Below are positions 2,653 to 12,089 of a DNA stretch of 64,000 nt, piece after piece. The notes below the pieces were generated by a model that was not told where the DNA came from, searched no databases, and saw only the letters and a program-made list of their open reading frames with translations. The stretch lies in the IMG/VR virus record IMGVR_UViG_3300027809_000002. One strand, written 5' to 3'. The stretch comes from a virus. Made by a program: the position numbers and the translations under genes. Every line of letters starts with the position of its first letter. Position 1 is the first letter of the stretch.

Positions 2653-2961
2653 ATGAATTACGAAATTGGTCAAATGGTTGAGTTAAGTTGGGAAGATAAA
2701 GATGGTTATGCGCGTTGGCAATACATGGTTGCTATAAGAAACTTTGATGATAGAACACAATTTATAAAAGAATACGGTGGTCGTTTTATGGAATTTGCAT
2801 CTAAAGATGGATCAGAAAATAAAGAACCGGATTCAAGAGATAAACATAAAATTAAAGTTATTCCGTTGTATCAAAATGGACGACCTGTTTTCTCTAAACG
2901 TTCATTCTTCGGATTAGGCGGTTATAACTTTGAACCAACAACAAAGGATGGTGAAGTTTGA
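2653..2961 (+). CDS. hypothetical protein
   Basis: ATG after GAGGATGA. Coding-like composition. Confidence 0.5.
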   Translation: MNYEIGQMVELSWEDKDGYARWQYMVAIRNFDDRTQFIKEYGGRFMEFASKDGSENKEPDSRDKHKIKVIPLYQNGRPVFSKRSFFGLGGYNFEPTTKDGEV

Positions 2962-3161
2962 TGATGTATTTAGCTTGTTATTGTTTCCTTATAATGATTT
3001 ATACCTTGTTCCGCTCCCTTGCCAACGATAAAGTCAAAGGTGATGTCAGGGTATGGACTATGCTTATATATTTCCCTGTAGCATTATTTTCGGATTATAT
3101 ATTTTCCTTTAAACCTAGCTTAACTGCTGGGTTTTTATTTTGCTTGTTTACAATTAGTTAA
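2961..3161 (+). CDS. small membrane protein
   Basis: TGATG overlap with the upstream stop. Two hydrophobic segments. Confidence 0.45.
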   Translation: MMYLACYCFLIMIYTLFRSLANDKVKGDVRVWTMLIYFPVALFSDYIFSFKPSLTAGFLFCLFTIS

Positions 3162-3209
3162 AGTTATGTTTATAATAAGTTAAATGAAAATTAAGGGAGT
3201 GGATCAGGA

Positions 3210-3416
3210 ATGGCGAAATTAGAATTAACATTAACACATAACGAAGTTGAATCTATAGTTAGACAGTGGGTGCAGGAACATTATTCTGAATTAGATATAA
3301 AAACGATTACAACTTTAACAGGTAAAAAAGCTGAAATAAATATGGAATTCGGTGATAATATCATCCCTATATTTAAAGGTTTTAAATTTCATCTTGACCA
3401 AAAGGAGGGAAAATAG
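3210..3416 (+). CDS. hypothetical protein
   Basis: AAGGGAGTGG RBS. Confidence 0.5.
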   Translation: MAKLELTLTHNEVESIVRQWVQEHYSELDIKTITTLTGKKAEINMEFGDNIIPIFKGFKFHLDQKEGK

Positions 3417-3417
3417 T

Positions 3418-3693
3418 ATGAGTAGCGCATGTACTTGTCATATTAATAAAGATGAATGTTTATGGTGTTTAAAAAGAATAAGGTTTGAAGACAACGGAAA
3501 TATAATACTTATCAATGATGAACATGGAAGTTTGACTGAATTCCAAAAACATGAAGATGGCAATTTATACGTTTGTTCTGAAAATGGCGATGATAGACAA
3601 GTTGCTGGTTCTAAAATAAACAAGAAACAACTAAAAGAGTTAATGTTGTTCTTGGATAAAAATTACGGTTATTTATTGGAGGGTGTAAAATAA
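3418..3693 (+). CDS. hypothetical Cys-rich protein (CTCH..CLWC)
   Basis: AAAGGAGGGAAA RBS upstream of the internal ATG at 3418. Confidence 0.5.
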   Translation: MSSACTCHINKDECLWCLKRIRFEDNGNIILINDEHGSLTEFQKHEDGNLYVCSENGDDRQVAGSKINKKQLKELMLFLDKNYGYLLEGVK

Positions 3694-3745
3694 TAGGTAT
3701 CAAATCGGTATAACCTGTATATGATGTAGAAAAGGAGTGATTAAT

Positions 3746-4228
3746 ATGAAGATCAAAATGGTTCTCTTGAGTATATTGGCAGCTGGAATCCTGACTTCTT
3801 GTTCGGTAAGGGATAATACGGAAAAAACTAAAGAAATTCCAAAAAATGACAATAAAGTTGAAATAATTCAGGAAAATAACCAATTAGAAACTAAGGTTAA
3901 AGACACGCAAAACATCATTAAAATGGCGTTGCGAGAAGCTTATAAGAACGATGAAAAGCTTAGTATATTAGAAACTGATGTTGTTATCGATAAATCAGGT
4001 AGAAACATATCTTTAATTTATAATGTGGATGCTTTTGTGGATCACTTTAAGGTTGACCGTCAAATCGGTAAAGATTATTTCGCTAGTCAGGTTAACTTAG
4101 AACAATGGGGATGGATTAAAAATAAATGCTTTGAATTATACGGAAAAGAAGCTGGGATTACTGCTGCAAGTGACATTACTATCATCATAGTTAATAAGAA
4201 TGACGGAAAAGAGTTAAAGAGATTGTGA
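3746..4228 (+). CDS. putative lipoprotein
   Basis: AAAGGAG RBS. MKIKMVLLSILAAGILTSC with lipobox L-T-S-C. Confidence 0.6.
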   Translation: MKIKMVLLSILAAGILTSCSVRDNTEKTKEIPKNDNKVEIIQENNQLETKVKDTQNIIKMALREAYKNDEKLSILETDVVIDKSGRNISLIYNVDAFVDHFKVDRQIGKDYFASQVNLEQWGWIKNKCFELYGKEAGITAASDITIIIVNKNDGKELKRL

Positions 4229-4563: not shown

Positions 4564-4803
4564 ATGAATACGATGCAAAAATCTATGTTTATAGATGCGC
4601 TTGTAACTAGGAAGGATAATTTAAAACAATCAGTAGAAGATGCTAAAAAACAAAGTAAAGATTTGAATATATTTCAAACTTACCAAAAAGGTATGATAGA
4701 TGGAGCTGCAATGGCTGTAGAAGAAGAAATTAAATGTTTAGAAACGTACTTAGCTTATTTGCAAGAATGTAAAACTGAAGAGTTGCAAAAGACACTTCAT
4801 TAA
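4564..4803 (+). CDS. hypothetical protein
   Basis: ATG 9 nt after GAGAGG. An alternative start is at 4555. Confidence 0.5.
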   Translation: MNTMQKSMFIDALVTRKDNLKQSVEDAKKQSKDLNIFQTYQKGMIDGAAMAVEEEIKCLETYLAYLQECKTEELQKTLH

Positions 4804-10062: not shown

Positions 10063-10092
10063 TTGACAAGCATAAAGTATGCCGTATATAAT
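10063..10092 (+). promoter_or_regulatory. consensus sigma-A promoter
   Basis: TTGACA, 18 nt spacer, TATAAT. Confidence 0.7.
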
Positions 10093-10184: not shown

Positions 10185-10451
10185 ATGATTATAGAAATTG
10201 ATAAAAATAATATTTACCCTGCCGCTGAAGAGGTACAAAAGAATCTTCTCAAGAAAGCAATAATTAAAAGGACTGTACCTGAGTGGGGAGGAACTACAAA
10301 GCAAGTTTCTGAAGAAGCTAGGCCTTTGCATTTTAAATATAAAAGTGGAACTGAACTTAGTGGACAACCAGTGTTACAAGTTGTTGTTTTAGGAGTTACA
10401 GCAAGAGAATTTGATTTTAAAGATTTAGATTCATTTGAATTCCAAAGCTAA
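10185..10451 (+). CDS. hypothetical protein
   Basis: TGGAGGT RBS. Confidence 0.5.
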   Translation: MIIEIDKNNIYPAAEEVQKNLLKKAIIKRTVPEWGGTTKQVSEEARPLHFKYKSGTELSGQPVLQVVVLGVTAREFDFKDLDSFEFQS

Positions 10452-10473
10452 ACTATAACTTTAGCAAATGTTG

Positions 10474-10502
10474 TTGACAAGTTAATTAATAACTGTTAAG
10501 AT
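10474..10502 (+). promoter_or_regulatory. sigma-A-like promoter of the tRNA/ncRNA unit
   Basis: TTGACA at 10474-10479, 17 nt spacer, TGtTAAGAT with the -10 at 10497-10502. Confidence 0.6.
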
Positions 10503-10568
10503 TAACTTATAAACGTTACACATACGTTTCGCCATATGTTTTCTCTCTTTCATATCTTGGATCAGATT

Positions 10569-10602
10569 TTCTGTACTAGTTACGCGTAAGGCTGGTACAG
10601 AA
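10569..10602 (+). ncRNA. leader hairpin / near-palindrome upstream of tRNA-Asp
   Basis: 11-bp stem TTCTGTACTAG/CTGGTACAGAA. The loop contains the palindrome TTACGCGTAA. Confidence 0.6.
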
Positions 10603-10606
10603 TCAT

Positions 10607-10677
10607 GGGGAATTAGTTTAGTGGTAAAATACACGGCTGTCTACCGTGAGTCAGGGGTTCAACTCCCCTATTCCTCG
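10607..10677 (+). tRNA. tRNA-Asp (anticodon GTC), no encoded CCA
   Basis: Hand-folded cloverleaf: acceptor GGGGAAT/ATTCCTC, D stem GTTT/AAAT, anticodon stem CACGG/CCGTG, loop CTGTCTA, T arm AGGGG-TTCAACT-CCCCT. Position 37 is a pyrimidine, which is unusual. Confidence 0.8.
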
Positions 10678-10687
10678 TTTATAACAT

Positions 10688-10761
10688 GGCGTTTGTAGCA
10701 TTGTTGGGAATGCAACCTAAGAGTCCCTTAGGTAGAAGGTGTTCGACTCACCCTTACGTCA
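10688..10761 (+). ncRNA. aberrant tRNA-like element / possible tRNA pseudogene (74 nt)
   Basis: T arm (A)GGTG-TTCGACT-CACC(C). Acceptor has 5 of 7 pairs. D loop contains GG. The anticodon arm is either a 7-bp stem ACCTAAG/CTTAGGT with a 5-nt loop, or a 5-bp stem with loop GAGTCCC (GTC present, but A at 33 and C at 37). Confidence 0.5.
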
Positions 10762-11309
10762 CCGAAACTATAAAACTTTAGTCATGTTGAAGTGGTTTAG
10801 GCGAAACCCTAAACAAAGCATATCCGTCCTACTGCGATATAAAAAGAAGGCTAACATGATGTCGTGACTGGTTCGGCGACATTAAAAGATAAACGACAGA
10901 CAGACTTCCTGTATGCGATCTCCATGTTCAAAGGATCGAACATACGAAAACTTTACATCAACTACAGTGAATGAGGTTTGGACATGGTTTCAATCACTGG
11001 TTGATTCAACGGTTAAAGTTAAAGGTTAAAGAACCGTGTGACCCTAGTATAAATGGTATATTAAAATGCGAACGCTGTTTATACGTTAAAACTTTCTACA
11101 ACGTTAGTCGCATACGGTATGTAGAAGTCGCATTAAGTTGAAAGGTTATGAGTGCGACAAAACAAATTAAAAGAACCATCCCTACACAAGATAAGTTCTT
11201 TTATTGGGACGTAAGCGCCCGTTAAACTTAGGAACATATGAGTCCTGAAAAAAAGAAACGCGTATAAAATTCTCGTTTGTTTTCGTTGAGCCGCTTAATC
11301 GCGGCAATA

Positions 11310-11432
11310 TGGGTTGTAGTTTAAGAAGGAAAAACATTATAAATGCGTTTGAGACGATGAAGCATACTAGTCAAAGCGAAAAGTCGTTGATGCGTTTATA
11401 AAAAAGTTAGGTTCGACCCCTGACCAACCCAC
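11310..11432 (+). ncRNA. 123-nt tRNA-like RNA with a long hairpin in place of the anticodon arm
   Basis: Acceptor TGGGTTG/CAACCCA. D arm GTTT-AAGAAGGA-AAAC. T arm (G)TTAGG-TTCGACC-CCTGA(C). Between them, a 13-bp stem TTATAAATGCGTT/GATGCGTTTATAA, a 6-bp stem, and a terminal loop of about 24 nt. Confidence 0.5.
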
Positions 11433-11437
11433 CGCAT

Positions 11438-11503
11438 GCAGGATTATGGTATTGCAGTTACTTCAGCTGAAACTGTAAGGTGGTTCGACTCCACTATCCT
11501 GCT
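11438..11503 (+). ncRNA. 66-nt tRNA-like element lacking a D arm
   Basis: Perfect acceptor GCAGGAT/ATCCTGC. T arm GGTGG-TTCGACT-CCACT. Only 10 nt where the D arm should be. Anticodon-like arm GTTAC-TTCAGCT-GAAAC (CAG, one A-A mismatch), which includes the palindrome TCAGCTGA. Confidence 0.5.
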
Positions 11504-11602
11504 ACTATCATGGTGTGAAAACACCTCCTACCCCCTTAGGAATATAGGTTAATTTGTTTTTCATAGTTATAAATTTTCCTTTCTAGTTGTTTATCAAAGA
11601 AG

Positions 11603-11632
11603 GCATCGGCTTAATCGCTGGTGCTTTTTTTG
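11603..11632 (+). terminator. intrinsic terminator ending the ncRNA unit
   Basis: Stem GCATCGGC/GCTGGTGC, loop TTAATC, then a T7 run. Confidence 0.75.
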
Positions 11633-11675
11633 TTGTAAAATTTGGTATTAATGGTTTCCGAAAGGATGTGATCGA

Positions 11676-12089
11676 ATGGCTGAAGTTACAAATAAAATTA
11701 AAACAAATTTAGAAAAGTCTCCAAATGGACAGGAATTGTTAGTTGTAGAAGATGTTAATGGCGTTAAAGCCGTACCGATGGTATTAGTTACTATTGATGA
11801 AAACGGAAAGTATTCTTACGCTGGATCATTAGGTGGAGGTGGTGGCTTAACAGCTGAACAAGTTAATCAAATGTTAGCTGGATATTCTAAAACTGACCAT
11901 AACCACGATTCCGTTTATGCTAAAACATCAACTTTAAGTAATTACGCTACAACAACTCAATTAAACACGAAATTAACTGCAAACAAAATGACTAGCATTC
12001 CTAATAGTGCTGCTACTGATGTAGCTGGTGTTGTTGCCGATTTAAACAAATTATTAGCTGGTTTAAAAGCTGCTGGAATCATGTCGTAA
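11676..12089 (+). CDS. putative virion fibre/decoration-like protein (137 aa)
   Basis: AAAGGATGTGA RBS. G5 linker, then a TDHNHD..Y motif and a C-terminal ADLNKLLAGLKAAGIM helix of the kind seen at fibre or head-fibre ends. A monocistronic unit flanked by two terminators. Confidence 0.35.
   Translation: MAEVTNKIKTNLEKSPNGQELLVVEDVNGVKAVPMVLVTIDENGKYSYAGSLGGGGGLTAEQVNQMLAGYSKTDHNHDSVYAKTSTLSNYATTTQLNTKLTANKMTSIPNSAATDVAGVVADLNKLLAGLKAAGIMS

Follow-up and report, generated by a model that had tools for sequence, protein, structure and literature searches.

The stretch of DNA analysed here, referred to as the window, comprises 64,000 nt of IMG/VR virus record IMGVR_UViG_3300027809_000002, read 5' to 3' on one strand, and belongs to a Bacillus cereus-group siphophage of the subfamily Sejongvirinae. 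Positions 10474-11632 form a promoter-to-terminator unit, poor in open reading frames (ORFs), in which one canonical tRNA-Asp is accompanied by three tRNA-shaped elements (elements 2-4) that are rejected by standard detectors. When the unit was compared with its counterparts in related phages, elements 2-4 were found to be maintained RNA modules, neither decaying nor decoding tRNAs. Two aspects of the locus go beyond an earlier, sequence-only reading of it: the conserved non-tRNA RNAs that lie between the elements, and the cassette-like variation between phages. The features of the unit are as follows.

10474..10502, + strand: sigma-A-type promoter, TTGACA-17-TAAGAT with a TG extension (consensus scan; conserved across relatives)
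10569..10602, + strand: leader hairpin directly 5' of the first tRNA (predicted fold; relatives)
10607..10677, + strand: element 1, canonical tRNA-Asp(GUC) with U37 and A38 (ARAGORN; Rfam, 63 bits)
10688..10763, + strand: element 2, tRNA-like, with a 6-bp stem and 5-nt loop (NNUCC) for an anticodon arm and an A-CC-G 3' tail (relaxed ARAGORN; homologues)
10775..10882, + strand: element E, a ~90-nt structured RNA (helices H1-H3), and hairpin H4 (covariation; Bastillevirinae homologues)
10905..11158, + strand: ~255-nt core with several hairpins and invariant loops (GGUUAAAGUUAAAGGUUAAAGAACCG; UUAAGUUGAAAGGUUAUGAG) (8-phage alignment)
11169..11308, + strand: middle hairpins with invariant GUUUGUUUUCGUU and a hairpin closing directly 5' of slot 3 (alignment)
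11311..11433, + strand: element 3 (slot 3), tRNA-like, with acceptor stem, D arm, T arm and A-CC-G tail, and a 65-nt hairpin for an anticodon arm (minimum free energy cloverleaf with a long arm)
11438..11503, + strand: element 4 (slot 4), D-armless and tRNA-like, with a 7-bp acceptor stem, a 7-nt GG-containing linker, an 8-bp stem with an 11-nt loop, and a T arm (tRNA-Sec, 21.9 bits, sub-threshold)
11512..11595, + strand: small RNA (sRNA)-like tail with a GGUGUG-AAAA-CACC hairpin, a UCCUA-CCCCC-UUAGGA hairpin and a single strand with invariant CCUUUCUA (conservation)
11596..11632, + strand: intrinsic terminator, a fold of -22 kcal/mol followed by U7 (conserved with compensatory changes)

The sequence-only reading had taken only the first element to be a standard tRNA, and the detectors agreed: the tRNA-Asp was the sole tRNA called in the 64 kb by default ARAGORN and by Rfam at gathering score (29 bits for RF00005; 47 bits for RF01852, tRNA-Sec). 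For elements 2-4, default ARAGORN was silent and no match to RF00005 was obtained at E ≤ 10. They were called by ARAGORN only at relaxed settings, which also yield obvious false calls, and element 3 only in intron mode. Their non-canonical tRNA shape, which had likewise been proposed, gained comparative support. All four elements and all 16 cassettes compared (below) had an acceptor stem, a T arm whose loop is of the UUCRA type, and a GG located in the D loop or linker, and none of elements 1-4 combined a 5-bp anticodon stem and a 7-nt loop with U33 and a purine at position 37. Three of the four matches to the T-loop motif GKTTCRANNCC in the window fall inside the 1.1-kb unit. In element 3 a hairpin does stand in place of the anticodon arm, as had been stated, but it measures 65 nt (11337-11401) and not 80; the absence of a D arm from element 4 was upheld. 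No tmRNA was called by ARAGORN and no YrlA match was found by Rfam in the window, and no RNA ligase, Pnkp, CCA enzyme or Ro gene is annotated in the genome of the related phage Basilisk. An attP-type tRNA fragment was considered and rejected, both acceptor strands and the D arms being present and the Basilisk integrase gene lying ~58 kb away.

Region 10300-11800 of the window was ~82-84% identical to BCPST, BCP6, PBC4, BSG01 and pW4 (Yihwangvirus) and ~77-79% identical to Basilisk, Bak1, Bak6 and Bak10 (Basiliskvirus), with a coverage of at most 64% in any matching record. IMG/VR scans with longer patterns and two downstream proteins yielded four extra relatives (L010/L013, L011, L012/L015 and L014), and no match to the unit was found among PLSDB plasmids. 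A scan of metagenomes and genome collections with the 16-mer AAGGTTATGAGTRCGA was discarded: the pattern was too short, and the 240 loci returned were all chance matches, none of them unit-like by blastn. The unit was then aligned across nine genomes or contigs, namely the window, the IMG/VR contigs L013, L014 and L011 (partial), BCPST, PBC4, pW4, Bak10 and Basilisk. It was kept in all aligned Sejongvirinae, and its module order was constant: promoter, leader hairpin, zero to two canonical tRNAs, optional element 2, optional element E, ~255-nt core, hairpin set, slot 3 cassette, slot 4 cassette (missing in Basilisk), sRNA-like tail and terminator. The canonical tRNAs vary between relatives, being Asp, Trp and Asp, Asn and Trp, or none. 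The last case is L013 (IMGVR_UViG_3300036783_000113, 2815-4005), in which element 2, element E, core, slot 3, slot 4 and tail are all present and no canonical tRNA was detected in the unit by ARAGORN or by Rfam at gathering score.

In slot 3, at least five cassettes could be told apart across the aligned phages. The window carries the 65-nt hairpin; Basilisk and L013 have the window's upper half but a 7-nt loop, UCUCAGU, with C33 and a 5-nt variable region; Bak10 has the loop GCGCA/GGCGCAC; and in BCPST, PBC4, pW4 and L014 the anticodon arm is entirely gone. The L011 cassette scores 52 bits with the Rfam tRNA model, yet its anticodon loop is the tetraloop GACG, and 25 bits were obtained for the L013 copy with the general tRNA model. 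In slot 4 three kinds of cassette were seen: one is D-armless and has a loop of 9-11 nt (window, PBC4, Bak10, L013), another has a 6-nt loop and scores 30 bits (L014, L011), and the third has a 42-nt arm (BCPST, pW4). The tip of this arm, GAUGAUACUAGUUAAAACGA, is similar to that of the slot-3 hairpin in the window, GAUGAAGCAUACUAGUCAAAGCGA. The four homologues of element 2 (window, L014, L013, pW4) have a 6-bp stem and a 5-nt loop (AGUCC, UGUCC, AUUCC or AAUCC), with compensatory changes in the acceptor and lower stems. Even the window, L014 and L011, whose flanks are ~95% identical, carry different cassettes. The lower halves are wholly different, ranging from the 65-nt hairpin and 42-nt arm to loops of 4, 5, 6, 7 or 9-11 nt or to no arm. 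Most cassettes have A-CC-(A/G/U) 3' of the acceptor stem, the D-armless slot-4 cassette instead ending in UAC without a CC tail, and A-U precedes the first G of every module, the tail hairpin included.

For the upper halves, 16 distinct cassettes from the three slots and from Bastillevirus tRNA arrays were aligned by hand and fitted to the structure; in this alignment 94.4% of cells were paired, versus 62% in shuffles, and 9 of 10 pairs covary. The slot-4 D-armless upper half is identical at 41/41 positions among PBC4, Bak10 and L013. The window matches these at 39/41, both differences belonging to one compensatory change of a C-G to a U-A pair. In the lower arm of this same cassette ~10 of 26 positions differ between phages, and the adjoining 298-aa gene shows 53-60% identity at third codon positions. 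Upper-half identity beside lower-arm divergence within one cassette is not explained by recent transfer but is explained by purifying selection on the upper half. The upper halves of the tRNA-like cassettes are under strong purifying and compensatory selection.

These data bear directly on the decaying tRNA cluster suggested in the sequence-only reading, in which the elements would be plain pseudogenes, remnants of a formerly larger cluster drifting neutrally. Such an origin would suit elements that adjoin real tRNAs, the more so as the number and identity of those tRNAs vary between relatives. Against it, the upper half is unchanged across genera while silent sites nearby have diverged by ~35-45%, compensatory changes occur in acceptor, T and lower stems, the loss is confined to the anticodon region, and the lower arms show no sign of recent gene conversion. 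Intact canonical tRNAs at the same positions in related phages, which that reading had named as the mark of pseudogenes, were never seen: slots 3 and 4 of the relatives compared hold other non-canonical cassettes, none of them a tRNA with an intact, standard 7-nt anticodon loop. Neutral decay is extremely unlikely.

In four relatives (L001 1946-1985, L004 1967-2000 and the equivalents in PBC4 and Basilisk), the place of the window's element 2 and element E is occupied by a minihelix, GGCC-UUUGAUC-GGCC, preceded by AU and followed by ACCA or ACCU. This microhelix, which is not present in the window, resembles a T arm bearing the 3' end of a tRNA. Modules consisting of T arm, acceptor and ACCA, without a default ARAGORN call, were also seen in the unrelated IMG/VR phage contigs L262 (- strand, ~4677-4780), L269 and L292. 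Anticodon-less tRNA mimics may be more widely spread among phages.

Cassettes of this kind also occur in myophages of the Bastillevirinae. Bastillevirus arrays (L006 2100-2262; L009 1595-1762; L007 2172-2336) contain a conserved ~90-nt structured RNA and then a variable tRNA-like cassette directly 5' of tRNA-Trp. The cassette, which scores 25 bits (Rfam, sub-threshold), ends ...CCCACCA-CAUG just 5' of the tRNA-Trp, and its 3' half is nearly identical to the L011 slot-3 cassette. In Bastille it has a 5-nt loop, UGUUA, and GenBank labels these cassettes tRNA-Asn or tRNA-Leu. Most hits of an IMG/VR scan for T-loop...CCCACCNCATG were canonical phage tRNAs, so the ACCA-CAUG junction is not specific to mimics. 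HNH endonuclease genes are inserted in the Bastillevirus arrays and may drive cassette exchange.

Some Sejongvirinae cassettes have also been annotated as tRNAs. In 2018 Farlow et al. (PMC6145125) reported, on the basis of tRNAscan-SE, a 'tRNA-SeC' for Basilisk, Bak1 and Bak6 and a 'tRNA-Ala' for Bak10, situated 3' of tRNA-Asn/Trp. Their positions and loop sequences identify them as the slot-3 cassettes, and in the Basilisk/L013 cassette (the 'tRNA-SeC' of Basilisk) UCA lies within the C33 loop. Literature searches turned up no account of the elements beyond these calls. Taken at face value, the annotations would imply unusual decoding tRNAs, whether selenocysteine or opal suppressors, alanine tRNAs, or frameshift suppressors with enlarged anticodon loops, and the 52 bits of the L011 slot-3 cassette would be in keeping with this. 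However, in other phages the same slot, with the same upper half, is combined with a 65-nt hairpin or a GACG tetraloop or lacks an anticodon arm altogether, the Basilisk loop has C33, and elements 2-4 of the window are under every tRNA threshold. The tRNA-Sec model gave at best 21.9 bits (element 4), and neither a long variable arm nor the 8/5 acceptor/T architecture of bacterial tRNA-Sec was found. A decoding role is considered very unlikely; since the anticodon arm is dispensable, elements 2-4 are not decoders.

The tRNA-Asp presents a different case. Its anticodon loop, CUGUCUA, has U33 and U37, in agreement with the pyrimidine at position 37 that the sequence-only reading had remarked on. 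The loop is invariant in seven phage tRNA-Asp genes from Sejongvirinae and Bastillevirinae, in which the anticodon stem covaries, and U37 is a conserved phage feature. The tRNA-Asp of the Bacillus host presumably has A37. Phage tRNAs with anticodon-loop changes are known to evade host tRNases (PMC10264068), as in the case of PARIS and the T5 tRNA-Lys (PMC11464382). With its conserved, non-standard U37 and A38 beside an intact GUC, the tRNA-Asp resembles these and may well be a replacement of the nuclease-evading kind treated in PMC10264068. Elements 2-4, unlike such tRNAs, are not variants of decoding tRNAs and cannot replace a cleaved host tRNA, because their anticodon arm is replaced or lost. 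They had also been proposed as decoys for anticodon nucleases of the colicin E5 type; this is not supported, because no anticodon loop is conserved, GUC being present in only two of the four element 2 homologues and the anticodon arm being replaced or absent in elements 3 and 4.

Between the tRNA-like elements lie the unannotated structured RNAs. Element E is common to the window phage, one other Sejongvirinae contig and many Bastillevirinae myophages: window positions 10765-10910 are 82-90% identical to an unannotated stretch in the tRNA arrays of Bastille, W.Ph., Vinny and OTooleKemple52, and copies were located at L006 2500-2640, L007 2575-2715, L008 2501-2640, L009 2501-2635 and L013 3098-3235. 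The H1 loop, GUCAUGU, has its complement in an invariant ACAUGAC further downstream, pointing to a pseudoknot or switch. Across the helices, this H1-loop pairing included, 100% of cells were paired and six pairs had double changes. None of 500 shuffles reached the covariation score or the percentage paired, and one of the 500 matched the six pairs. No Rfam match to element E was found. The W.Ph. copy, as read from the sequence, comes last in its array, ahead of a terminator-like hairpin and T-run.

An invariant AAGAAGG, similar to a Shine-Dalgarno sequence, is followed after 5 nt by an AUG within element E (10844-10867). The mini-ORF so formed encodes MMS, MTS or MT before its stop, or has 12 codons in relatives, and its AUG is part of the strand pairing with the hairpin-1 loop. 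The arrangement may be coincidental, or it may serve to load ribosomes or act as a start-stop element.

In the core, 14 of 55 predicted pairs had compensatory changes in the 8-phage alignment. The corresponding figures were 5 of 32 for the middle hairpins, where extra hairpins are inserted in relatives, and 4 of 27 for tail and terminator; the tail hairpins are conserved and their closing pairs covary. Covariation analysis across related phages, which the sequence-only reading had called for, showed compensatory changes in core, middle hairpins, tail, terminator, element E and cassettes. These changes support local helices in the core, tail, terminator and middle hairpins: the unit is an RNA selected for its structure and not spacer DNA. 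A long-range helix between GAGUGCGAC and GUUUGUUUUCGUU proposed by alifold was rejected, as it clashes with a well-supported core hairpin and has zero double changes.

The core hairpins at 11010-11036 and 11127-11158 have invariant or near-invariant loops, GGUUAAAGUUAAAGGUUAAAG and UUAAGUUGAAAGGUUAUGAG, both containing AAAGGUUA, and GAAAGG is complementary to CCUUUC in the tail. The repeated loop motif, in which no covariation is seen, could be a protein-binding or kissing motif. The tail scored 20.8 bits with RsaE/RoxS, far under threshold (Rfam). Yihwangvirus-type tails additionally carry CACCUCCU, and CCUUUCUA and CACCUCCU presumably match the 3'-terminal anti-Shine-Dalgarno sequence of Bacillus 16S rRNA, so that pairing of the tail with ribosome-binding sites is conceivable, in the manner of the C-rich sRNAs RoxS and RsaE. 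Permissive Rfam searches of the window and 11 related loci returned only tRNAs and sub-threshold noise (RsaE, rli61, MicC and snoRNAs).

With more than 600 nt of conserved, covarying structure beside tRNAs in a phage, one large ornate RNA of the GOLLD/ROOL kind has to be weighed. Core, middle hairpins, tail and perhaps element E would then fold together, with the tRNA and tRNA-like modules as tethered parts or cargo, and the several invariant loops could mark tertiary or multimer contacts. GOLLD and ROOL are likewise encoded by phages and prophages near tRNA islands, and GOLLD can hold tRNAs in a linker (bioRxiv 10.1101/2024.12.08.627333). The likeness, in hundreds of nucleotides of covarying structure adjoining tRNAs, is one of context and not of membership. 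No GOLLD, ROOL or other large-RNA Rfam model matched the window at gathering score, region 10300-11800 at E ≤ 10 or seven relatives at E ≤ 5; no covarying long-range helix was found, the supported helices all being local hairpins; and element E, element 2, slot 4 and the extra hairpins come and go between relatives without visible compensation. A single large RNA of this kind is rather unlikely.

That the unit acts at the DNA level, as a packaging site, an origin or a set of protein-binding repeats for the adjacent terminase genes, is hardly credible. The large terminase gene does lie ~1.3 kb downstream of the unit, and the core holds the repeat GTTAAAG three times, but the substitutions preserve + strand RNA pairing, G-U pairs included, and promoter, tRNAs and terminator share one orientation. 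The 218-bp terminal repeats of Basilisk are ~10 kb off. They sit at the ends of the record, and a packaging site or genome end was accordingly discarded as a candidate.

The sequence-only reading of the locus as a dedicated promoter-to-terminator non-coding unit held up. The promoter is kept in seven relatives, with TTTACA/TGATATTAT instead in two Basiliskvirus genomes. Promoter-like sites are not enriched in the region (11 seen versus 10.2 expected), so the promoter call rests on conservation. In Basiliskvirus the leader has a different sequence and an equivalent hairpin in the same place. The terminator hairpin, with compensatory changes, is kept in eight phages; a simple terminator scan did not list 11596-11632. 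As had been stated, no ORF reaches 60 aa: the largest inside the unit is 56 aa, the three largest had no meaningful PHROG match, and the units of relatives differ by 1-2-nt indels. The statement that no ORF follows a ribosome-binding site needs a small correction for the 3-codon mini-ORF at 10856-10867, which has the Shine-Dalgarno-like AAGAAGG ahead of it.

Upstream the unit is flanked by an 88-aa ORF (10185-10451) and downstream by a head-fibre-like 137-aa gene (11676-12089), which is followed by the 298-aa gene and the large terminase. With these genes on its two sides, the unit lies at the border of early and structural genes. A perfect consensus promoter, TTGACA-18-TATAAT, is present at 10063-10092, upstream of the 88-aa ORF, and read-through from it could feed the non-coding RNA (ncRNA) operon. 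In relatives, short coding sequences overlapping the tRNA-like cassettes and tail have been annotated (BCPST_089, BCPST_088 'capsid protein', L001 2321-2585, and Basilisk gp29, L005 2230-2394); such annotations within the ncRNA operon are probably artefacts.

Taken together, the unit is tentatively read as a polycistronic ncRNA precursor in which the tRNA-like upper halves serve as handles for RNase P, RNase Z and CCA addition and as scaffolds for structured RNAs, a reading whose chance of being right we put just short of even. Conservation, modularity, RNA-level selection and anticodon loss are seen in the alignments; transcription, the processing enzymes and the action of the released RNAs we infer. 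One ~1.1-kb precursor would be made from the unit's own promoter, just upstream of the head and packaging genes, and would contain one decoding tRNA (Asp), element E, the ~255-nt core, the middle hairpins, the C-rich sRNA-like tail and three tRNA mimics. The mimics retain what would be the host's tRNA-processing determinants: a 10-12-bp coaxial acceptor/T helix, the D-loop/T-loop elbow, U at -1 and usually A73-CC-N. RNase P would cut at the 5' ends of the mimics, and RNase Z or exonucleases and the CCA-adding enzyme would finish their 3' ends. Excision of the mimics would punctuate the precursor, so that element E, the core with the hairpins, and the tail would be released with defined ends. 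The mimics could also be stable tRNA scaffolds displaying an exchangeable lower arm, of which the 65-nt hairpin in element 3 is an example.

In favour of the precursor, the unit is conserved with a constant module order, pairing is under selection throughout, and the cassettes share the acceptor/T helix while their lower halves differ. In Bastillevirus arrays, too, a tRNA-like cassette follows a structured RNA, and L013 retains the whole unit without a canonical tRNA. U at -1 is the usual context of RNase P cleavage, and the substrate context for RNase P and RNase Z, as far as the nucleotides themselves tell, consists of A-U before G+1 at every module, the 10-12-bp acceptor/T helix and the A-CC-N tail.

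Several known systems offer partial parallels. The T4 species 1 and 2 RNAs are stable RNAs co-transcribed in a phage tRNA cluster. Phage K has abundant long ncRNAs beside its tRNA genes (PMC9241854). As in those phages, non-tRNA structured RNAs lie here in or beside a phage tRNA operon and would presumably be freed by tRNA-processing enzymes; unlike there, most of the operon's 'tRNAs' are anticodon-less mimics, the operon persists tRNA-free in L013, and it has no sequence or Rfam relation to either. In the tRNA-miRNA (TMER) units of MHV68 and in MALAT1-mascRNA, a non-decoding tRNA-like fold is fused to an ncRNA, and a cut by RNase P or RNase Z at the mimic sets where the neighbouring RNA ends. 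The mimic receives CCA but is not aminoacylated, and the systems are eukaryotic, with pol III transcription or nuclear processing. The tRNA-like fold beside another ncRNA is shared with the present unit, for which similar processing is proposed, whereas the unit belongs to a bacterial phage and its cassettes are swappable. We know of no description of tRNA-like processing modules with swappable cassettes in a bacterial phage. Element 3, with an intact acceptor, D arm and T arm and a long foreign hairpin for an anticodon arm, has exactly the layout of the engineered tRNA scaffolds in which recombinant RNA is put in the anticodon-arm position (PMC3753655). Its upper half likewise bears other inserts in relatives; in contrast to those scaffolds, it is a natural phage gene.

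Several points weigh against the precursor reading. Two adjacent mimics, in slots 3 and 4, exceed the needs of punctuation. Conservation of the D-loop GG and of the whole elbow suggests a need for the full L-shape, more than cleavage alone would call for. In Bastillevirus the mimic stands directly 5' of a real tRNA, whose RNase P site could already set the 3' end of the upstream RNA. Finally, cassettes are swapped fast between close relatives, which would suit a locus in an arms race better than a signal for housekeeping processing.

A different use of the upper half, as a decoy or sponge, modifies an idea of the sequence-only reading and is a minority possibility to be taken seriously. The mimics would be made in quantity to occupy or inhibit proteins that read the acceptor stem, T arm, elbow or CCA tail. 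Candidates are anti-phage enzymes of the host whose targets, for cutting or modification, are tRNA 3' tails or acceptor stems, and the host's own enzymes of tRNA processing and modification. The lower arm would be free to vary, or varied to stay out of translation. Selection limited to the upper half and elbow, several copies per operon, an A-CC-N tail encoded by most cassettes, and different cassettes in close relatives, as is typical of counter-defence loci, all suit this. A defence nuclease of the appropriate kind exists in Cas12a3, which binds tRNA by its acceptor stem, T arm and CCA tail without regard to the anticodon (PMC12851939). However, no such defence of the B. cereus group is known from the present data, the D-armless slot-4 cassette ends in UAC without a CC tail, the long conserved non-tRNA RNAs of the operon are left unexplained, and a decoy is not separated by sequence from a processing handle.

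Viral tRNA-like RNAs and tRNA-linked ncRNAs are already known, and some of the cassettes had been seen before and misnamed tRNAs. New here is the recognition of the mimics as one family, anticodon-less and cassette-swapping, in which selection acts on the upper half only. The operon, conserved and able to do without a real tRNA, is also new, as are three more structured RNAs that had not been annotated (element E, core and tail). The published 'first phage tRNA-SeC' and tRNA-Ala of Basilisk-like phages and the tRNA-Asn and tRNA-Leu of Bastille-like phages are corrected to members of the mimic family. It is conceivable, although doubtful, that siphovirus and myovirus phages of the B. cereus group share these unrecognised mimics as counter-defence decoys against immunity that reads the acceptor stem, T arm and CCA end, or as tethered parts of a new GOLLD/ROOL-like RNA. 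If either the decoy or the large-RNA explanation is true, the 1.1-kb operon would be a dedicated RNA-based host-takeover module and not a tRNA supply locus. Why phages carry tRNAs and tRNA-adjacent RNAs is still debated, and the locus is a clean natural experiment in this respect: the interchangeable mimics separate the functions of a 'tRNA shape' (processing, scaffolding, protein binding) from decoding, and give defined constructs. Element E, the core and the tail are candidate phage regulatory RNAs in the B. cereus/anthracis group, for which phages of this kind are under development as therapeutics and diagnostics.

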